From NCBI GenBank assembly GCA_032128875.1, contig JAVLKG010000002.1, positions 1,024,001 to 1,088,000 of the forward strand: a stretch of 64,000 bases of DNA, in the 5' to 3' direction. Both the position numbers and the translations under genes were made by a program. This DNA comes from Candidatus Melainabacteria bacterium 17Bon1m (GTDB lineage Bacteria; Cyanobacteriota; Vampirovibrionia; Obscuribacterales; Obscuribacteraceae). This document shows, piece by piece, positions 1-9,013 of this stretch (position 1 is the stretch's first letter; every line of letters starts with the position of its first letter). The notes under the pieces were generated by a model. That model saw nothing but the letters and a program-made list of their open reading frames with translations. It had not been told where the DNA came from and made no database searches.

Positions 1-616
1 TCCAAAAGGCACACGGATGTGGTTCGTCAACGAGTCTTCTGAAAATTCATTCAACGGTATGTGGGCAACCAGTGTTTTAGGTGCTCAATTATTTTCTGGT
101 CGCACTGCTCTAATTTGCTCAGCCCCCCGTCTGGAAGCCCTTCTTCAGCGACGCCGCACTCCTCGCGCAGCACTCGACGTGAACGCAAGCCTTAGAATGG
201 AAGGCGATGAAAAAAGCTTTCATTTGCGCACACAAGATATTTCGAGCTCCGGCATAGCGCTAGTATCTCAAATTGACTTGCCTGCCGCCGTCGATGTTGG
301 TGAAAGTATCGTCGTTAGTATTGATGCTAAGACAGGTAAGATTGAAGCTACTTGTCGCGTCATCAGAATTGAGAAAAACTGGCTGGCCAATAAGACCGTT
401 CTGGGCGTCGAAATGACCGATATGGATGATGATTCTTCGGAGACTCTTATGAAACTGCTGAATCTACTTGGTCTGGACAATAAGTCTGAAGCCGAGACTC
501 AAACAGCGACCAGTAAACTGTTTGGATGGAAGGGCGAGCAACGCGGTGAAAAAGAAGACCGCAGTTTTATAAGAAAGACAGGAGAGATTTCACCACCGGA
601 TGTTGAACCAAGTTAA
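1..616 (+). CDS. PilZ-domain (YcgR-like) c-di-GMP-binding protein, probably 5'-truncated by the window edge
   Basis: PilZ motifs QRRRTPR and DISSSG; the frame is open back to the window start. Confidence 0.75.
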   Translation, partial: PKGTRMWFVNESSENSFNGMWATSVLGAQLFSGRTALICSAPRLEALLQRRRTPRAALDVNASLRMEGDEKSFHLRTQDISSSGIALVSQIDLPAAVDVGESIVVSIDAKTGKIEATCRVIRIEKNWLANKTVLGVEMTDMDDDSSETLMKLLNLLGLDNKSEAETQTATSKLFGWKGEQRGEKEDRSFIRKTGEISPPDVEPS

Positions 617-620
617 CTCG

Positions 621-1448
621 ATGGAAACAATACAAGCGATAGTTTTAGGCGTTGTTCAGGGACTAACGGAATTCTTACCAATAAGCAGCACGGCTCACTT
701 AAGAGCTGTACCGGCATTGCTAGGTTGGGCCGATCCGGGCGTCGATTTCACAGCTGTTATCCAGCTGGGTTCGGTTTTGGCTCTATTCGCTTATTTTCGA
801 AATGACATCGTGACGCTCGCTGCCGGTTCTTTCCAGGCGCTTAGAAAGGGCGATTTGGAGAGTAAGGAAGCGCGCATCGCAGGCGCGATTATTGTCGGCA
901 CAATTCCGGTTTGCGTAATCGGACTCGCTCTGAAAAACATTCTTGAGCAAAATGGTGGACCTTTGCGAAGCCTTGTCGTAATTGGCACTGCCTCCATTGT
1001 GATGGGGCTGCTGCTGCTGGTTGCAGAGAAGGTAGCCAAACACACTCGCACTCTAGATTCGATTGGTGTCAAAGACGGATTGATAATCGGATTAGGGCAA
1101 GCGATGGCACTGATTCCGGGCTGCTCTCGCAGCGGTTCGACATTGACCGTAGCAATGCTTTCGAATTTGAAACGTGAAGATGCGGCTCGCTTTAGTTTTT
1201 TGCTGGGAATACCGGCCACAACTTTGAGCGGTTTATTTGAACTCAAGCACTTCTTTGAACATGGCTCAACCGAATCAGGAATTACGTCTCTGGTTGTCGG
1301 AACAATTGTCTCAGCAATCGTCAGTTATGCCGCAATTGCCTGGCTGCTCAAATATTTGAGCAACCATTCGACTTGGTTGTTCATTATTTACCGCATCATA
1401 TTTGGTGCAACCTTAATAGGGCTATCATTGGCTAATGTAATTCATTAG
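621..1448 (+). CDS. uppP: Undecaprenyl-diphosphate phosphatase (BacA/UppP)
   Basis: Motifs VQGLTEFLPISSTAH and PGCSRSGST; multiple TM helices; start set at ATG 621. Confidence 0.95.
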   Translation: METIQAIVLGVVQGLTEFLPISSTAHLRAVPALLGWADPGVDFTAVIQLGSVLALFAYFRNDIVTLAAGSFQALRKGDLESKEARIAGAIIVGTIPVCVIGLALKNILEQNGGPLRSLVVIGTASIVMGLLLLVAEKVAKHTRTLDSIGVKDGLIIGLGQAMALIPGCSRSGSTLTVAMLSNLKREDAARFSFLLGIPATTLSGLFELKHFFEHGSTESGITSLVVGTIVSAIVSYAAIAWLLKYLSNHSTWLFIIYRIIFGATLIGLSLANVIH

Positions 1449-1485
1449 TTCAAGTTTCTCTCTTTGTTTTTCGCAAGAAACTTGA

Positions 1486-2664
1486 TTAGCCTCTGATTAG
1501 TCGCTTTAGCAGAGCGCTTAACCGATGTCTCGATTGGTCGCTCTTCGCTTGTTCTCGTTTGACGTCTTCTATACGTTTTTCCAAAACGCGCACCCACGAA
1601 TCAGTAATTCCTTTGTCTTTCGCAGCTTTAACCAGACTGCCGAAACCGCCAATTTGGTGGGCTGATGGAATGTTTAACACAGAAAGTTTTGCGTCAGACA
1701 ATTCAGGAATTGCTTTGGATTGCGGAATGCCGTGAAGCCTCGTGAGCAGAATATCCATGACACACTTCGCGCAGACTCCGCAGTTTTCATCGCGTCTTTC
1801 AGCGCTGAAGCAAATTCTCAAATTGTCATAGCCGTCCGCCCATTCGGTGAGTTGCTTTATTTTTTCAACGCGTTTTACGCTTGCTCCGTCGTGAACAATA
1901 CCAAAACTGCAACTCGATAAAAGATGATCTGTTATCGGGTTCGACCCCCAGGGTAAAACCAGTCCGCCGTATGCGCATCCGCTCGCCACAAGCCCTTCAG
2001 AAAAGTTGTTTTTGAAGAACATCAGTGTTGATGCCAGTCCTGCGATATGCGTGTCGTCCCACTCGATATTCATCGCCTGAAGATTCGTAGACATTGTGAT
2101 CAAATTGATGCCTACTTTGTCGAGGGTCGCTTCGATGGGTTTAATTGCTCTCTCAAAAGCATCAGGTGCAGCCAGAGGAATATCAAACCCGTGCACGAAG
2201 AGGCAGCTTTTTATTTCGCGCTTCCAGGCTTTTGGGCAGGAGCCGAGCGTGTGTCGGAAAATCGTGTGTGTGCTGTCGACGCCACCGCTGAACGCTGCAA
2301 TTGCATTCGAACGTTCAATCGCAACGACTTCTTCAGACTCGCAGTCCGGGGTGATTTCGATCTGTTTGTATCTTTCCGGTCGCCAGACCTGCCAAACAGA
2401 CTGGAATTCACTGAGATTGCGCAGCAATGAAGGTGAAAGGTTGCCGTGGAAGCGGCAATCAAAGCCCGCTTTCATCAAAAGAAAAACGTTTGCTACGGCA
2501 AAAGAGTCTGCAGTGCAAACGGCTAAATGTGCGTATTTGCCAGGAATTTTGAACCAAAGGGTTTGACGTTCTTTATGCGGAGTTTCAATAACAGCGCTGA
2601 AGGTCGTATCTTCATTGAGACAAACCGGTTCTTCAATCCAAATGTGAGTCGTGCTGCTGGACAT
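1486..2664 (-). CDS. Uncharacterised PP-loop (QueC/ExsB-like superfamily) protein with a C-terminal Cys cluster
   Basis: AFSGGVDS PP-loop; C-x9-CGVCAKC. Confidence 0.65.
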   Translation of the reverse strand: MSSSTTHIWIEEPVCLNEDTTFSAVIETPHKERQTLWFKIPGKYAHLAVCTADSFAVANVFLLMKAGFDCRFHGNLSPSLLRNLSEFQSVWQVWRPERYKQIEITPDCESEEVVAIERSNAIAAFSGGVDSTHTIFRHTLGSCPKAWKREIKSCLFVHGFDIPLAAPDAFERAIKPIEATLDKVGINLITMSTNLQAMNIEWDDTHIAGLASTLMFFKNNFSEGLVASGCAYGGLVLPWGSNPITDHLLSSCSFGIVHDGASVKRVEKIKQLTEWADGYDNLRICFSAERRDENCGVCAKCVMDILLTRLHGIPQSKAIPELSDAKLSVLNIPSAHQIGGFGSLVKAAKDKGITDSWVRVLEKRIEDVKREQAKSDQSRHRLSALLKRLIRG

Positions 2665-2902
2665 CAGTGCTTCTGTCTATAAGTTCAGTTCGCCAAAGAT
2701 AAACCAAGTTCGATTTAAGTTACGGTTAACCAAAAATAACCCCCAAAATTGCAAGATTTATCCTCAATAGATCCCTCATGAAGTTAAGATTACCGGAGAG
2801 TCACCGAACGGTAACTTTCATATTGCTTGCGTGTAACTTTCGGCTTGTTCACGGGCATTGCAAGTAAGCAAATTGGTAGATATTAGAAACTGGAGCACAA
2901 TA

Positions 2903-3061
2903 ATGACGAAGAACGAAGTACAAAGTTTTTCCGTTGATGTTAAGGAATCCGAGGCAGTTACACAATTAGAGAAAGTCAAAAACCCAGTCCTGAAGAAGAT
3001 CATCCAACAGGTGCTGGTAGAAGATGAAGCAGGAAGTTCTTTCGGCGAAGGTGGCGCTTAG
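2903..3061 (+). CDS. Putative RiPP precursor peptide (52 aa), triceptide/FxsA-like leader
   Basis: GGAG RBS at 2892-2895, ATG 2903; helical leader NPVLKKIIQQVL; C-terminal AGSSFGEGGA; 63 bp upstream of the rSAM gene. Confidence 0.8.
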   Translation: MTKNEVQSFSVDVKESEAVTQLEKVKNPVLKKIIQQVLVEDEAGSSFGEGGA

Positions 3062-3124
3062 TTTTATCACTAAGGATGGCTGCCAGGTTGTTCGCTTCTT
3101 TTCCGTTGCTCAATCGGAGTTTCA

Positions 3125-4348
3125 ATGAAGTCAGTAATTGAAAACAAGAGAAGTGTGGAAATCAAGAGGCGGCCGATTACCTCTTACGTCCTGAAGATAG
3201 CGAGTCGATGCAATTTGAATTGCAAGTATTGCTATGTTTACAACCTGACGGACAAGACGTATCTGAATCAGCCTGCTGTGATGTCTGATGAAGTGGTGAA
3301 TTCCACTATTCAAAAGGCGCGCAATCATTGCATATCAAATAATCTCACCACTGTGGAATTTATCTTCCATGGTGGTGAGCCTCTTTTGGTTGGCCAAGAA
3401 TTCCTGCGTAGATTCACAGAACAAGCAAAGAAAGTTTTGCTTCCTGAAATTCAGCCTCATTTTTCGATACAAACAAATGGCACTTTACTAACCACTGAAT
3501 GGCTTCATCTTCTGAACGAGCTGAATATCAGCTATGGCATTAGTTTGGACGGCACGCCCGAAGTCAACGATGCCAACCGTGTCGATCATCAAGGCAAAGG
3601 TTCTTACCATCGAGTCAAGGCAGCGCTGGATTTGATTCACTCAGATCCGCAGTTTGAGCCGCGAATGAACGGCATCCTTTCTGTCATAAATATCCATAGC
3701 GATCCGATCGAGATTTACAGACACTTTCGCAGCCTGGGCTTGCGCTCGATTGATCTGCGCTTGCCTGATGCAACACACGATATTCCGCCGCCTGGTGTTG
3801 ACGTAAACGGCACTAATACGCCCTATGCGGACTGGCTGATACCAATCTTCGACGAGTGGTTTGCGCAATCAGAAGCCGAATTCAATGTTCGATTATTCCA
3901 ATATATTATCGGGCTAATTTTCGGATCTCAAAAGTCAACAGTAGATGTCGGTGCAATCAGCTCAAACTTTGCAGTCATCGAAACAGATGGCGGCATCGAA
4001 CCAAGCGGCGCACTGAAAGCCTGTTATGAAGGAATTACCAAAGTCGGCTTGAACGTACTCACCAACGAAGTCGATGAGATCTTCGATATTCCTGTGGTGG
4101 CACTATTTTCTGCTGCGGAAAGTGAATTGCCGGATACCTGCAAGCAGTGCCCCATAGTCAGCGTTTGCGGCGGCGGAAAGCCTCCGCACCGATACAGTGC
4201 AGACAATGGCTTCAACAACCCGTCAGTGTATTGCAGAGACTTGATGAAATTGATTGTGCATATTCAAGAAAAGGTTGTTGCCGAATTGCCTCAAGAACTG
4301 AGACAGCAATTGACTTTGGCCCCGCTGCGAGAATTAGTTGCCGACTGA
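3125..4348 (+). CDS. Radical SAM/SPASM peptide maturase, FxsB-like (cyclophane-forming)
   Basis: LKIASRCNLNCKYCYVY, FHGGEPLL, QTNG, SLDG, and C-terminal CKQCPIVSVCGGGKPPHRY...NPSVYC. Confidence 0.88.
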   Translation: MKSVIENKRSVEIKRRPITSYVLKIASRCNLNCKYCYVYNLTDKTYLNQPAVMSDEVVNSTIQKARNHCISNNLTTVEFIFHGGEPLLVGQEFLRRFTEQAKKVLLPEIQPHFSIQTNGTLLTTEWLHLLNELNISYGISLDGTPEVNDANRVDHQGKGSYHRVKAALDLIHSDPQFEPRMNGILSVINIHSDPIEIYRHFRSLGLRSIDLRLPDATHDIPPPGVDVNGTNTPYADWLIPIFDEWFAQSEAEFNVRLFQYIIGLIFGSQKSTVDVGAISSNFAVIETDGGIEPSGALKACYEGITKVGLNVLTNEVDEIFDIPVVALFSAAESELPDTCKQCPIVSVCGGGKPPHRYSADNGFNNPSVYCRDLMKLIVHIQEKVVAELPQELRQQLTLAPLRELVAD

Positions 4349-4876
4349 GTTTGCATCGGTCTTAGTATCTGTGCTCGTCACGCCTGCATTTTTTGAAAAA
4401 TGTTTTTTCAGTTTGGGAAACAATGCGAGTGCAATTGTGCCAGTAATTGGCATGATCGGAATCCACTGGCTGACAGGGGCAAAGGGGTCTAGTATGCCGG
4501 TTGTGTAGCTCAGCGCTTTGAAGTTGGTAGCAACCAATTTGCCTAACGGTGTGTAGGCGATGAGCAAACCGATGACGCCGCCGGCGGTGTAAACAAGAAT
4601 GCGAGGCCAAAACTCTTTGCCGAGCTTGCGCGTTAGTTGAAACACGTTCAAAATCGTCGCGCCCCACATCGCTCCCATAGGGACGCCAACAAAAAGCCCC
4701 CAGAAAATCCCCACCATGCCGTTGATCAAAAAACCTAACTTTTGATGGGTGATGCTCATGACGATGCCATTCACAAGAGCCGCCGCTACTAAGCTCACGC
4801 ACCCTGCAGCGGCGCCAAAAATTGCGCTCTCCAAAAGATGTTCTCTTACCTTTTCAAAGGATTGTAAGAGCGGCAT
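4334..4876 (-). CDS. Hypothetical membrane protein (about 4 TM segments)
   Basis: 180-aa ORF with Gly-rich hydrophobic segments; follows the kinase gene on the same strand. Confidence 0.65.
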   Translation of the reverse strand: MPLLQSFEKVREHLLESAIFGAAAGCVSLVAAALVNGIVMSITHQKLGFLINGMVGIFWGLFVGVPMGAMWGATILNVFQLTRKLGKEFWPRILVYTAGGVIGLLIAYTPLGKLVATNFKALSYTTGILDPFAPVSQWIPIMPITGTIALALFPKLKKHFSKNAGVTSTDTKTDANSVGN

Positions 4877-4912
4877 TTTTGATTCTCGGACCTATCTGTG
4901 GTGATTGTGTAA

Positions 4913-6253
4913 CTAGTGATTGTCTGTCGACTTGAAGATGGGAAAGCCGAAAGGCGATTTCTTTGAGTCTTCCTCAAGTGGCGCCAGCCCTTCTGGATCT
5001 GTAAGCTGCGCTTCTGAATCTTCTTGGAAGAGGACGTCTGGCTCTTTCACTTTATTTGGTTCACTTCCCGGGACGGGACTGACTTGCGGCAGTGGTATCG
5101 GTGAAACGTTGGGAGTGCCAGTTTCCGACGGTGTTGCGGCAACCTTCGGCGGCTCCTCTGTCTTTTTCTTGCTTTCGTCTTCCATATGCTGACGCAGAAT
5201 GTCGAGCTGTTTTTTTACTTGGTCTTCTCGATTGCGAGTCTCAGTCAATTGCTGTTGCAGAGAATCGACTTTCTTTGCTGTGGTGCTTGCGATTTGACCA
5301 TCCTGCTTGGGCAGCATAGCGCTGTGCCAGCCGACATACAAAATCGCAAATGCAAGAGCGACAACCGAAACCCCGATGATACCGCCCCAGAGCCAATTCC
5401 CCTGAGGCAATCCACGTTTGACTTCAGGTTGATACTCCAATTCCTCCAGCATCTCCAGAGCATTCTGAAAACGCAGCCAGGGATCTTGCGCGGTGGCACG
5501 CTGGACGATGTAGTCGATATGCTCGGAAAGGCTGTCGATATGTTTGCGCGGCGATGATGTTTGTAGAGCAAGAGGCTCTTGTCCTGTGAGCAAAAAGGAC
5601 ATGGTGGCGCCCAAAGCATAAACGTCTGAGCGAGGCTCTGCGGCACCCCAGTATTGCTCCGGAGGTGAATATCCTGCAGACACAACGTGTGTGTTGTCCG
5701 AGTCGTCTCTGTATTGGCGCGCGATTCCGAAGTCGACCAGCTTAACGCGACCAAGCGTATCGATCATGACGTTGCTCGGCTTCAAATCTCGATAGATAAC
5801 AGGAGGATCGTGCGTATGCAGATAATTCAGCACTTTGCAGATTTGCACCGACCATTCCAGAACTTGTTCTTCAGCAAAGGGCTCGCCGCGCTCGTGCAGC
5901 ATCTCGTGAAGATTCTTACCTTCTACGTACTCCATAAGAATGAAGTAGTCGTTGCCCTCTGGAAAGTGGTCTTTGATATCGACGATGTTGGGATGCTTTA
6001 GATCGCAAAGTACCTCGATTTCGCGCATGAAGAATGCCATCGCCTTTTCTCGATCTTCATCGCGGAAAAAGTCGTCGCGCAGCTTTTTAATAACGTAAGT
6101 ACGCCCGTGCAGGCGGTGATCTCGTGCCAGATACACCGTGCCCATCCCGCCTTGGCCAAGCTGGTCAATGATCTCGTAGCGCCCTTGTAAAACGAGCGCT
6201 TGCGAATTTTGATGCCCCTGATGAGGCGGTCTTTGGTAAGGCGATTCCGTCAT
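4913..6253 (-). CDS. Membrane Ser/Thr protein kinase (Hanks type)
   Basis: LGQGGMGTVY, YRDLKPSN, DFG, GYSPPEQ; TM helix then a coiled-coil and Pro-rich tail. Confidence 0.93.
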   Translation of the reverse strand: MTESPYQRPPHQGHQNSQALVLQGRYEIIDQLGQGGMGTVYLARDHRLHGRTYVIKKLRDDFFRDEDREKAMAFFMREIEVLCDLKHPNIVDIKDHFPEGNDYFILMEYVEGKNLHEMLHERGEPFAEEQVLEWSVQICKVLNYLHTHDPPVIYRDLKPSNVMIDTLGRVKLVDFGIARQYRDDSDNTHVVSAGYSPPEQYWGAAEPRSDVYALGATMSFLLTGQEPLALQTSSPRKHIDSLSEHIDYIVQRATAQDPWLRFQNALEMLEELEYQPEVKRGLPQGNWLWGGIIGVSVVALAFAILYVGWHSAMLPKQDGQIASTTAKKVDSLQQQLTETRNREDQVKKQLDILRQHMEDESKKKTEEPPKVAATPSETGTPNVSPIPLPQVSPVPGSEPNKVKEPDVLFQEDSEAQLTDPEGLAPLEEDSKKSPFGFPIFKSTDNH

Positions 6254-6483
6254 GCTTCTGAACAGTAAGCGCGTTAAATAATAGAGACTCCGGCTTTCCT
6301 AGTTCGTTCGTGTCATCGGACCCGACAGCCCTAATTAGCCAACATCAGTATAACAATAGTTAAGCCATCTGAATCGCCCATTATTTCCGAATCTTGGCAG
6401 TTGGCAAGAGAAGGCTTTTGGTAGCGGTCGGTAGTGCTCTGTCCTAATGAACGGTTCAAGCGTCCAGTTTGCAAAAGACAGGC

Positions 6484-7323
6484 TCAGTCCAGGATCGAAT
6501 GCTTTACGAGTTGCTCATTGAAAAGAGAAAGACCGGCCAGGTGCTCTTCTTCCAGGCAATAGTCAAGTTCTTCCAGGAAATATCTTTGTAAGCGCTCACG
6601 GCTTAGGGAAGTGCGCTTCTCTGCTTGCTTTAAAACCTCGCTGAAGAGAGGTCCAAGACCGAGGTCTCTTGCAGTTTGCAGTTCGCGGCTCAAATGTTCA
6701 AAAGCTTCTGTATTGCCGTCACGCCAGGTTTTTCTGGCTGCCCAGACTCCAAAAACCATTGGCACTTTGAAATTGGTCGACCACCATTGACCGAGGTCGA
6801 TGCGCTCAGCGTTTTTCGACCACTCGGCATCGACAGTCAAAGCCCGATCGCCAATGACAAGCGCGGCGTCGTATGTTTTTTCCTTGAAGTCCGGCTTAGC
6901 GCTCGTAAAAATTTCAGCTTTCACCGAGTGAACAATTGCCAGGTAAAGTTTCAACAGAGCAACAGAAGTAGCAGAGGAAGCCGGCACCACTATGCGGCAT
7001 CCAGTTTCGATCTGGTCTTTTGCAAAGAAAAGAACCGAGCCGACTTCCGCCTTTGTCGAAATCGAAAGACCAGGCAACAGGACCAGATCATCAATGTTTG
7101 AAAGGTAGTAAAAAGAGCTCATCGCTCCCAGGTCCAGTGCTCCGCTTGAATAACCAGCGTTGAGGTTGGCAGGAGTGTCTTCGGTAATGTCAGCGTCGAT
7201 TTGCACTTGCCCGGATGTCAAAGGAAGGAGCACCGGCAAGCAATTAACGAAGTTGATTTGTCCGAGGCGCGGGCGAATCTCTTTGATTTCGTTTTTGTTT
7301 TCGGGCTGACTAAGTAGCGGCAA
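6484..7323 (-). CDS. mqnA: Chorismate dehydratase MqnA (futalosine menaquinone pathway)
   Basis: RLGQINFVNCLP, SATSVALL, AALVIGDRAL, DLGQWW...PMVFGVW. Confidence 0.88.
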   Translation of the reverse strand: MPLLSQPENKNEIKEIRPRLGQINFVNCLPVLLPLTSGQVQIDADITEDTPANLNAGYSSGALDLGAMSSFYYLSNIDDLVLLPGLSISTKAEVGSVLFFAKDQIETGCRIVVPASSATSVALLKLYLAIVHSVKAEIFTSAKPDFKEKTYDAALVIGDRALTVDAEWSKNAERIDLGQWWSTNFKVPMVFGVWAARKTWRDGNTEAFEHLSRELQTARDLGLGPLFSEVLKQAEKRTSLSRERLQRYFLEELDYCLEEEHLAGLSLFNEQLVKHSILD

Positions 7324-7452
7324 ACCAAGGACCTCCAGCGGGCGGACAAAAGCATAGCAAAAGCCGCGCCTGAGATACCCGGCTTACCGTCTAACCTGGC
7401 TAATCTGTAAAAGAATGAGATTCTCGCCGGACAAAATAGTGTCGTAAAAAGC

Positions 7453-7475
7453 AAAAAACTCGCGCCGAACGCGAG
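7453..7475 (-). terminator. Rho-independent terminator
   Basis: Minus strand CTCGCG-TTCGG-CGCGAG followed by T6. Confidence 0.7.
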
Positions 7476-7544
7476 CGAAATACGCACAAGAAGAAGATGG
7501 GACCCGGCCGTGAGTAAATATTGTTTTTCATAGGCCGGGGTCCC
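7453..7544 (-). ncRNA. Candidate ~90-nt small RNA, or attenuated leader of mqnA
   Basis: Promoter-like TTGACG-N16-CATAAT just upstream; 5' GC-rich hairpin at 7499-7544; CU-rich linker; terminator. Confidence 0.45.
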
Positions 7545-7551
7545 TATGACC

Positions 7552-7579
7552 ATTATGCAGAAGATTTGCGGGTCGTCAA
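7552..7579 (-). promoter_or_regulatory. Sigma70-like promoter
   Basis: Minus strand TTGACG-N16-CATAAT. Confidence 0.5.
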
Positions 7580-7688
7580 GAGGTGTGGCAAAATTTCTTG
7601 CTTGTGAATTTCGCAGGACAAATTTACAAGGCAGGGAAAGAAGGCACGTTCCCGCTACAATTCAAATCCGTCTTGTAGGAGAGTGCTC

Positions 7689-8999
7689 GTGAGAATGGTC
7701 GATGTAATCCTGGCGAAACGCTCAGGAAAAGAACATACAAAACAAGAAATCGACTTTATCCTGAACGGGATTATGACCGGCTCCATCCCGGACTATCAGC
7801 TTTCCGCATGGCTAATGGCCGTGTGTTGGCAGGGCATGACGCTCGAGGAAACGGCACATCTCACCGACGGCATGTGCAAATCAGGTGAAGTTCTCGACCT
7901 TTCATCAATCGGTCCTCTGGTGGCAGACAAGCATTCCACCGGCGGAGTGGGCGATAAAACCACTCTGGTTTTCGTCCCTCTTATGGCCGCAGCCGGACTG
8001 CCAATGGCTAAGTTGTCCGGTCGAGGCCTCGGACACACTGGTGGCACCATCGATAAATTGGAAGCAATACCAGGATTCAAAACAGACATTTCAATCGAAC
8101 ATTTCATCCAGCAGGTAAAAGACATCGGCATGGCAATTGCCGGTCAGACCCAAGAATTGGCGCCGGCTGACGGAAAGATTTATGCGTTGCGCGATGTGAC
8201 CGGCACGGTCGAGTCCGTACCGCTGATTGCCGCATCTATTGTTTCCAAAAAAGCCGCAGCAGGCACCAACCTCATCATCCTTGATGTGAAGTGTGGCCGT
8301 GGTGCCTTTATGGAAACCGAGGAGCAGGCACAAAATCTGGCACGCGTTATGGTCGAAGTCGGTAAGCTCATCAAACGCCCAATTACTGCTGTCGTGACAA
8401 ATATGGAGCAGCCGTTGGGAATGGCGGTGGGTCACACACTTGAAGTTATTGAGGCTGTTGCGACCTTGCAAGGTAAAGGACCTGGGGACTTGCATGAGCT
8501 CACGCTTGCACTCGGCTCTCTGGCGCTTGTAAAAGCAGGCAAAGCAAAAGACGAGGAAGCTGCCCGCCGCAAGTTGATTCAACTCATGGAAAGCGGCGCG
8601 GCACTTGATCACTTTAGAAAGTTGATTGTCGCGCAGGGTGGCAACCCCGAGATAATTGAAAAGCCTGAGCTGATGCCTACTGCAAAACACGAGTTCGATC
8701 TTTTACTGCCCGGCACCGGACAGAAATGGATCAAGCATATCGATGGAAGAAAGGTCGCCGAAGCCTGCAAAATTTTGGGCGCCGGCCGCACCAAGAAAGG
8801 CGATCCCATTAACCTCGCTGTCGGTGTAGTGTTGACCGGTAAAGTCGGCTCTGTAATCAGAGGCGGCGATGCGTTAGCCACTGTGTACGCCGACTCGGAA
8901 GGCGAATATGATGCTGCTCTGCCGCTATTGAATGAGGCATTTACCTTCAGCGATTCGCCTGTGGCAATGGAGCAAATCATCAAAGCAAGTGTTGCCTAG
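7689..8999 (+). CDS. pdp: Pyrimidine-nucleoside/thymidine phosphorylase
   Basis: DKHSTGGVGDK, SGRGLGHTGGTIDKLE, LRDVTGTV; AGGAG RBS. Confidence 0.95.
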   Translation: MRMVDVILAKRSGKEHTKQEIDFILNGIMTGSIPDYQLSAWLMAVCWQGMTLEETAHLTDGMCKSGEVLDLSSIGPLVADKHSTGGVGDKTTLVFVPLMAAAGLPMAKLSGRGLGHTGGTIDKLEAIPGFKTDISIEHFIQQVKDIGMAIAGQTQELAPADGKIYALRDVTGTVESVPLIAASIVSKKAAAGTNLIILDVKCGRGAFMETEEQAQNLARVMVEVGKLIKRPITAVVTNMEQPLGMAVGHTLEVIEAVATLQGKGPGDLHELTLALGSLALVKAGKAKDEEAARRKLIQLMESGAALDHFRKLIVAQGGNPEIIEKPELMPTAKHEFDLLLPGTGQKWIKHIDGRKVAEACKILGAGRTKKGDPINLAVGVVLTGKVGSVIRGGDALATVYADSEGEYDAALPLLNEAFTFSDSPVAMEQIIKASVA

Positions 9000-9013
9000 A
9001 CTACTGACGTCGC

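Follow-up and report, generated by a model that had tools for sequence, protein, structure and literature searches.

A candidate triceptide-type peptide cassette in an Obscuribacterales genome, with a predicted Phe-Gly-Glu cyclophane and a co-inherited QatC/QueC-fold gene

The window analyzed in this study was a stretch of 64,000 nucleotides from the genome of Candidatus Melainabacteria bacterium 17Bon1m (order Obscuribacterales; contig JAVLKG010000002.1, positions 1,024,001 to 1,088,000), and our focus was a locus within it that resembled the cassettes for triceptide-type peptides that are made by the ribosome and modified after translation (RiPPs). Three genes were of concern (Table 1): an open reading frame (ORF) for a short peptide, a radical S-adenosylmethionine (SAM) gene downstream of it, and a divergently oriented gene for a PP-loop protein. 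The peptide (MTKNEVQSFSVDVKESEAVTQLEKVKNPVLKKIIQQVLVEDEAGSSFGEGGA), whose C-terminus read ...VEDEAGSSFGEGGA, was preceded by GGAG at 2892-2895, 7 nt ahead of its ATG, and its stop codon (3059-3061) was separated by 63 bp from the enzyme ATG at 3125, with another GGAG at 3116-3119. The enzyme held VLKIASRCNLNCKYCYVY (Cys29/33/36), IEPSGALK at residues 292-298, and CKQCPIVSVCGGGKPPHRY...PSVYC (Cys339/342/348/370). A preliminary description of this DNA had reported a 52-aa peptide with its own ribosome-binding site, 63 bp before the radical SAM gene, along with the enzyme motifs at the start, at EPSGALK, and in the C-terminal Cys tail, and all of these were present. It had also called the system minimal, which is doubtful, as it overlooked the divergent gene, which is co-inherited with the enzyme and probably belongs with the peptide-enzyme pair.

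Table 1. Coordinates of the features at the locus, numbered from the first nucleotide of the window.
Feature	Positions	Strand	Basis
PP-loop ATPase-like protein, QatC/QueC fold, 392 aa; candidate third cassette gene, divergent from the peptide	1486-2664	-	Fold, co-inheritance
Precursor peptide gene	2903-3061	+	ATG ORF, 52 aa plus stop: leader, acidic spacer, core GSSFGEGGA
Leader motif, residues 27-38 (NPVLKKIIQQVL)	2981-3016	+	Family pattern [N/H]-P-[VILM]-[VL]-K/R/D-K/Q-[IVA]
Proposed ring motif Phe47-Gly48-Glu49 (aromatic-X2-X3)	3041-3049	+	Precursor alignment, repeats
Radical SAM cyclophane-synthase-like enzyme, FxsB/YhhB/ChlB type, 407 aa	3125-4348	+	NCBIfam scores, ChlB match, tree
CxxxCxxC radical SAM motif (Cys29, Cys33, Cys36)	3209-3232	+	28/28 aligned enzymes; Pfam Radical_SAM E 1.1e-13
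Gly295 codon in EPSG295ALK	4007-4009	+	Asp in ChlB and most relatives; aligns with Asp277 of anaerobic sulfatase maturase; candidate determinant for acidic position 3
C-terminal auxiliary-cluster cysteines Cys339-x2-Cys342-x5-Cys348-x21-Cys370	4139-4234	+	Invariant in 28/28 aligned enzymes
Predicted membrane protein, 180 aa, convergent with the enzyme gene	4334-4876	-	No Pfam, NCBIfam, or PADLOC family

Comparison with related sequences indicated that the small ORF is a real, conserved precursor, beyond chance. In all five close loci (5/5) the enzyme was preceded by one to three tandem small genes, every one of which closed with GS[S/A/T]FGE and a short tail rich in Gly. Relative to three close relatives, 7-16 of the 52 codons were changed synonymously and 6-7 non-synonymously, and DNA identity to three relatives was 84-91% across the ORF as opposed to 75-76% across the upstream spacer; the pattern of codon changes was consistent with a coding gene. 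When a profile built from 13 upstream peptides was searched against the database, 36 proteins matched at E <= 0.001, none of which carries a name. The leader pattern [NH][PQS][VILM][VL] occurred in 36/36 of them and FGE in 34/36, while the remaining two, from a second genus of the order, had YDE/FAD/FPE and ended in ...SAYDEFADFPED. Leader Pro28 was invariant in precursor alignment A3; in the 34-row alignment A4, His/Asn27-Pro28 was nearly invariant, Ser45 and Glu49 were invariant, and Phe47 and Gly48 were nearly so. The motif that the preliminary description had singled out as F-x-E was thus conserved as F-G-E among the small ORFs collected upstream of homologues, and in a repeatable form.

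The repeatable form was found in genome G089, where a second enzyme, 57% identical to the one studied here, was accompanied by a downstream 163-aa precursor (paralogous locus L037). This precursor contained eight units (AFGEQG, SFGEGG four times, SFGQGS, SFGELG, and GFGEVV), and because F-G-[E/Q] alone was common to all eight, it was identified as the putative modified motif. Precursors with several cores are typical of triceptides. The second genus retained the leader (ENPILDKIM...) in a 57-aa downstream ORF, which offered Y-D-E, F-A-D, and F-P-E. At L038:447-1433, a 328-aa highly acidic, lysine-rich, repetitive ORF without a Pfam family was located directly beyond the eight-repeat precursor gene. 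Around the gene in the window, the spacer at 3050-3135 folded no better than shuffled sequence (z 0.04), and a scan of 2500-4600 for promoters and terminators yielded 2 and 3 sites, where 3.2 and 2.2 were expected.

Among the NCBIfam models, the enzyme scored highest with FxsB (TIGR04269; 361.5 bits), followed by YhhB (NF041707; 342.2 bits, below its cut-off of 445), XyeB (190.3 bits), and GrrM/OscB (105 bits), so that FxsB was the nearest of the models that the preliminary description had named for scoring. PqqE-type models were not among the NCBIfam matches listed, the PADLOC matches were to generic viperin models only, and the family search in control genomes gave none above the cut-off. 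The best solved relative was the radical SAM domain of the triceptide synthase ChlB (9gm3; E 5.2e-65 over residues 18-390). The database held 2857 homologues at E <= 1e-30 among 8000 scored candidates; the close ones had either no name or the annotation 'radical SAM protein', while FxsB family was the name given to a Nocardia protein of 49% identity. As the curated FxsB and FxsA models were missed narrowly or outright, we placed the system as a new variant beside the FxsB/MscB family. A distant radical SAM/SPASM-like gene also occurred elsewhere in the same genome (G000:C1:238653-239189, locus L002), in a 493-aa open frame with 33% identity over residues 19-208.

The same searches addressed whether the enzyme might instead be an anaerobic sulfatase maturase (anSME) or other protein maturase beside an incidental small ORF, in which case the locus would not encode a RiPP. 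The anSME models did match (178 bits; PDB 4k36/4k37, E 2e-30), but far more weakly than ChlB in the case of the structures, and the TIGR03942 score of 178.3 bits was half the cut-off of 349. Cys339/342/348/370 of the enzyme aligned with Cys317/320/326/348 of anSME, which we take to be the ligands of the second auxiliary cluster (Aux-II), and in the pairwise alignment no enzyme Cys aligned with anSME Cys255/261/276/330, presumably the Aux-I ligands; Asp277 of anSME likewise had no counterpart. With the Aux-II cysteines kept and the Aux-I counterparts absent, a single auxiliary site seems to be retained in the enzyme, as in ChlB. The small ORF, moreover, was conserved, multiplied, and repeat-bearing, and we regard the maturase explanation as hardly credible. 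Assignment of the enzyme to the FxsB/YhhB/ChlB-type three-residue cyclophane synthases, as the preliminary description had proposed, and not to the sulfatase maturases, is supported by these sequence comparisons.

The preliminary description had also pointed out that EPSGALK lacks the acidic residue of its relatives, and this was correct. In pairwise alignments, Gly295 paired with the Asp of ChlB ...HDLDVLK and with anSME Asp277, which directly follows Cys276, and of the 120 best database homologues, 85 had Asp, 26 Gly, and 9 Ser at residue 295, the Gly/Ser-type homologues including myxobacterial and Nocardia ones (e.g., P0231, P0233, P0246, P0250, P0267). In our 28-row alignment, residue 295 was Gly or Ser in 13/15 enzymes whose peptide has an acidic residue at position 3, Asp in 5/5 enzymes with Arg, Ser, or Lys there, and D, G, and D in the three enzymes with Gln. 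A set of 80 metagenome loci served as a contrast: residue 295 was Asp in 78/80, and in the approximately 31 loci where a precursor was recognizable by eye, most peptides ended in F-x-S/N/A-x-x, the classic FxsA form. Across the aligned sequences, Gly or Ser at 295 predicted an acidic or amide residue at position 3 in each of the 14 cases seen, whereas such a residue could also occur with Asp.

In anSME, Asp277 reportedly neighbors the side chain that loses its C-beta hydrogen. If so, residue 295 would face substrate position 3, and Asp at 295 would repel a Glu at that position. The role suggested for Gly295 is that it may allow a carboxylate at position 3 to be accommodated in the active site.

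The system appeared to be an accessory trait, as the enzyme was present in 9/107 genomes of the order, comprising 6/12 other genomes of the same genus and 2/2 of the second genus. The genome containing the window (7.55 Mb, 35 contigs) had one enzyme copy and one peptide copy. The closest loci were in metagenome-assembled genomes labelled Candidatus Obscuribacterales or Melainabacteria, with enzymes 77-91% identical and synteny that was complete between UppP and the phosphorylase. When 28 enzymes were placed in a maximum-likelihood tree, 21 formed a clade (support 100/99), made up of 9 Obscuribacterales, 1 Bryobacterales, and 11 Bacteroidota enzymes. Eighteen of the 21 adjoined peptides with aromatic-x-Glu/Asp/Gln, one adjoined FGR/FGS, and two loci ended at a contig edge. 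The Bryobacterales peptide ended in ...VFGRFGSFGSFGRVVIFE, and in ten Bacteroidota loci the upstream peptide had G-G and then WLD/WLE, WRE, FIE, WKE, WKE, WNQ, FRQ, WNQ, WIE, or YGE. The nearest outgroup member retained Phe-Gly at positions 1-2 (FGR, FGS); outside the clade, the Nostoc-type loci had His motifs and the YhhB-like loci ...YNRTHNRHNRGR, and there was an FxsB-HExxH fusion. The preliminary description had remarked that the host lineage is not known for such products, and a literature search for RiPPs or radical SAM enzymes in Melainabacteria, Obscuribacter, or Vampirovibrionia returned nothing relevant among the matches listed.

Two further observations were made in the wider set of loci. 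A second conserved small ORF was located approximately 200-450 bp upstream of the enzyme in 7/10 complete Bacteroidota loci (L010, L011, L013, L016, L017, L018, L019), where, in the Spirosomataceae-type loci, R-G-G-D-[R/K]-[E/P]-Y-x-P-[M/I]... followed Gly-Gly; it also occurred in metagenome locus L077 and may be another precursor type for the same enzyme. On an alphaproteobacterial contig (L025), two cyclophane-synthase-like genes were 2.3 kb apart (541-1677 and 3977-6154), one of them YhhB-like and the other a 725-aa FxsB-HExxH fusion (TIGR04267, E 2.2e-27).

The protein encoded by the divergent gene was assigned from its fold. It had no Pfam or NCBIfam match at E <= 0.01; QueC (Pfam PF06508) gave E 0.13 and 12.2 bits against a gathering score of 22, with the match at the cysteine cluster, and PDB sequence searches returned only weak GMP-synthetase PP-loop matches. 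Its 859 database homologues were all hypothetical, for this family neither a Pfam model nor a published function was found, and the protein atlas placed the protein in unnamed clusters. The AlphaFold2 model had a predicted local distance difference test score (pLDDT) of 89.9, and its best Foldseek match was QatC (9y01/9y02, E 8e-6). Alignment with VIA-align gave Z-scores of 15.2 for QatC (residues 2-367), 12.2 for Cap9, 12.1 for QueC, and approximately 9 for general PP-loop enzymes. The features of the QueC fold were present, namely the SGGxDS loop (here SGGVDS), a four-Cys metal site (the invariant Cys285-x9-Cys295-x2-Cys298-x2-Cys301), and the fold itself.

Inheritance of the PP-loop gene together with the enzyme was seen in three genomic contexts. 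Copies of at least 47% identity occurred only in the 9/107 enzyme-bearing genomes, and G089 had two of each gene. The enzyme was adjacent in 9 of 34 examined loci with a PP-loop homologue. In a tree of 33 PP-loop proteins, the 9 enzyme-adjacent copies and two from cut contigs of an enzyme-bearing genome formed one clade (Shimodaira-Hasegawa-like approximate likelihood ratio test, 99), whose branching mirrored the enzyme tree, and 12 other Obscuribacterales paralogues fell outside it. Both the gene order of the cassette and its neighbors differed between lineages: the surrounding genes were those for UppP and a kinase in the window, for the T and H proteins of glycine cleavage in L038, and for RND/OEP efflux and a pyruvyl transferase in L039/L040. 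Two paralogues in the same genome as the window (G000:C3:371898-373037 and C3:384501-385457; L042, L043) were 39-40% identical to the PP-loop protein and 12 kb apart, and adjoined a nitroreductase-family gene and a family 2 glycosyltransferase (GT2) gene.

A tailoring or partner role is probable for the PP-loop enzyme, and whether it acts on the peptide at all we judge to be an even chance. The system could also consist of two genes, with the PP-loop gene a polysaccharide-type, amidotransferase-like bystander kept adjacent by descent; this is possible, at somewhat below even odds. Its paralogues and cyanobacterial homologues mostly adjoined GT2 and polysaccharide pyruvyl transferase (PS_pyruv_trans) genes, such genes were near L039 too, and all radical SAM-linked copies came from one bacterial family and hence from few contexts. 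Within 4 kb of the enzyme's 11 relatives in Bacteroidota and Bryobacterales, the PP-loop gene was absent. A bystander would be less expected to form a clade of its own that mirrors the enzyme tree, to occur only in the 9 enzyme-bearing genomes, to be duplicated along with the enzyme in G089, and to keep its adjacency despite different order and neighbors. Complex prediction for the PP-loop protein and the precursor (from alignments A2 and A4) scored 0.00, which gave no answer and was neutral either way.

A more specific role for the QatC/QueC-fold ATPase would be that of a dedicated tailoring enzyme, one that adenylates the Glu or the C-terminal carboxylate to form an amide, nitrile, or thioacid, or to join an amine or nucleobase. 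Such a peptide modification would be undescribed for ribosomal peptides, and in that case replacement of Asp by Gly295 would act as a natural switch opening cyclophane synthases to acidic residues; we consider this extended proposal unlikely. Two other ideas on the protein were rejected. A RiPP precursor recognition element was sought in its N-terminal 115 residues, which, folded alone (pLDDT 91.8), gave a best Z-score of 6.5 to RNase H-like domains (integrase cores, TerL), with no PqqD-like fold among the matches listed and every match below the trust level of the tool. A lasso-peptide system with an Asn-synthetase-like cyclase was set aside because the fold was QueC/QatC-like, no leader peptidase was found, and only 3 residues follow the Glu.

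We propose, with a probability of roughly 65%, that the locus is a triceptide-type RiPP cassette that most likely makes a Phe-Gly-Glu cyclophane. The conserved leader would serve for recognition of the 52-aa precursor. SAM would then be cleaved by the radical SAM enzyme, and the resulting 5'-deoxyadenosyl radical would take a hydrogen from the Glu49 side chain, with C-beta as the most likely site. Addition of the Glu49 carbon radical to the ring of Phe47, followed by re-aromatization, would yield a three-residue Phe-Gly-Glu cyclophane with a loss of 2 Da. By having Gly295 in place of the conserved Asp, the active site could accept the carboxylate at position 3. No genes for leader removal or export are encoded at the locus.

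A ring could also form with a different topology, from Phe to Glu C-gamma or at the meta instead of the para carbon, which would make the product something other than a canonical aromatic-to-C-beta triceptide. A bond between Glu C-gamma and Tyr is made by PqqE. The Gly at position 2 and the longer Glu side chain leave room for a C-gamma link or another outcome, and the literature covered contained no Glu at position 3 among characterized cases. WprB links Trp-C5 to Arg-C-gamma, and with a non-native Phe motif ChlB yielded a metacyclophane. We nevertheless consider such a topology decidedly unlikely, as MscB, OscB, YxdB, HaaB, YhhB, HtkB, and MicB all link to C-beta, and the enzyme was far nearer to these C-beta-linking relatives than to PqqE-type models. 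It is very unlikely that the enzyme alters the Glu or a neighboring residue with no ring formed, by oxidation, decarboxylation-type chemistry, or epimerization. A related promiscuous enzyme makes aminomalonate from Asp, and loss of the conserved Asp at 295 could alter the outcome of the radical reaction, but the aromatic residue two positions ahead of the acid in every unit (36 peptides) would be hard to explain if it had no role in a ring.

Several points weighed against the proposed Phe-Gly-Glu cyclophane cassette. The cross-link and the atoms that it would join were assigned by homology, and the room for a C-gamma link noted above bears on the same step. The enzyme scored 8.5 bits short of the curated FxsB cut-off of 370, and the peptide matched no NCBIfam family, FxsA models included. 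The residue-295 rule is one-directional and derives from related sequences with few independent changes, and Asp-type enzymes were found beside acidic motifs in L019 (WIE), L022 (YGE), L077 (WVE), and L110 (FSD, four times). Precursors outside the Obscuribacterales were assigned by eye, from position and motif only. The polysaccharide-type surroundings of most PP-loop relatives also belong here, as does the finding that no protease or exporter was encoded within 5 kb of the cassette. A HExxH domain was likewise absent there, and all three negatives agree with the preliminary description.

The genes that were present within 5 kb encoded PilZ, BacA/UppP, a Ser/Thr kinase, an MqnA-type protein, a pyrimidine nucleoside phosphorylase, and the 180-aa membrane protein, which was kept only in the syntenic close relatives and was absent from the other two cassette contexts. 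In four public runs labelled as transcriptomic cDNA, positions 1-9000 of the window were found on identical single contigs of 18-34 kb with genes of both strands. These RNA-labelled libraries evidently hold genomic DNA of this or a nearly identical organism and may be where the DNA studied here came from, and they are no proof of transcription.

Were the Phe-Gly-Glu ring to prove true, Glu would join the residues cross-linked by three-residue cyclophane synthases, and the change from Asp to Gly or Ser at the anSME Asp277 position would represent a natural specificity switch useful for enzyme engineering, where just one other switch position for cyclophane synthases (HtkB/HaaB) is in print. The cassette would give the Obscuribacterales, which are non-photosynthetic relatives of the cyanobacteria, a defined family of peptide natural products. 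The co-inherited QatC-fold enzyme is a testable candidate for new carboxylate tailoring chemistry, and the eight-repeat precursor of L037 would be an ideal substrate, as eight rings would give a read-out of -16 Da. Within the well-mapped triceptide class, the Glu ring, the switch at residue 295, and the third gene offer concrete leads that would be inexpensive to test.

In the literature covered, characterized triceptide enzymes (XncB, OscB, MscB, YxdB, HaaB, YhhB, HtkB, and MicB) have substrates with Arg, Asn, Asp, Ser, Ala, or Lys at position 3. The preliminary description had regarded a Phe-to-Glu link as unlike those of described families, and this stood insofar as the literature covered contained no characterized triceptide with Glu at position 3; a predicted aromatic-x-Glu precursor family may already be listed in the published surveys. 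An acidic residue at position 3 is not new per se, however, because the Asp cross-links of OscB and YxdB, which join Trp C7 or Tyr C3 to Asp C-beta, are in print and provide a precedent for a carboxylate there. Those systems differ from ours in having Asp and not Glu, and the low GrrM/OscB score given above separates the enzymes as well.

The closest family was FxsA/FxsB (MscA/MscB), which provided the best NCBIfam model and shares Phe at position 1 and a motif near the C-terminus. The bond made by MscB joins Phe C4 to Ser C-beta, whereas here Glu takes the place of Ser at position 3, the motif is followed by 3-16 residues and not by 2, and residue 295 is Gly instead of Asp. The peptide ends in F-G-E-G-G-A and thereby departs from the FxSxx-COOH form, and no HExxH or other Fxs partner was fused or neighboring here, whereas L025 has the fusion. 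ChlB (PDB 9gm3, 9gmc), a multiple cyclophane synthase and the closest solved structure, has the same CxxxCxxC and Cx2Cx5C...C motifs and no Aux-I cysteines. It differs in its fusion to an alpha-ketoglutarate HExxH hydroxylase and in the Asp at the position of Gly295, and its native motif is given as YDR. In YhhB systems the precursors have H/Y-N-R, and the loci with ...YNRTHNRHNRGR were an outgroup in the enzyme tree. Unlike anSME, the enzyme here has Gly aligned with D277 and no counterpart of the Aux-I cysteines.

The proposed switch has a parallel in HtkB and HaaB, in which a single active-site residue (HtkB D214, HaaB H204) tunes acceptance at position 3. The Asp-to-Gly295 change would follow the same logic, probably at a different position, as judged by residue numbering (near residue 204-214 there, 295 here). 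For the third gene, the model suggested that the PP-loop protein shares with QatC the N-terminal beta/alpha extension, the Rossmann core with a four-Cys site, and the C-terminal helices. It was only 11-12% identical to QatC, Cap9, and QueC, and its C(x)9CxxCxxC differs from the canonical C(x)8CxxCxxC of QueC. No PADLOC match was obtained for it and no QatA/B/D genes were nearby, which set it apart from QatABCD defense systems. QatC and Cap9 target protein N-termini, and enzymes of the QueC family activate a carboxylate with ATP, with LarE and sugar amidotransferases as other branches.

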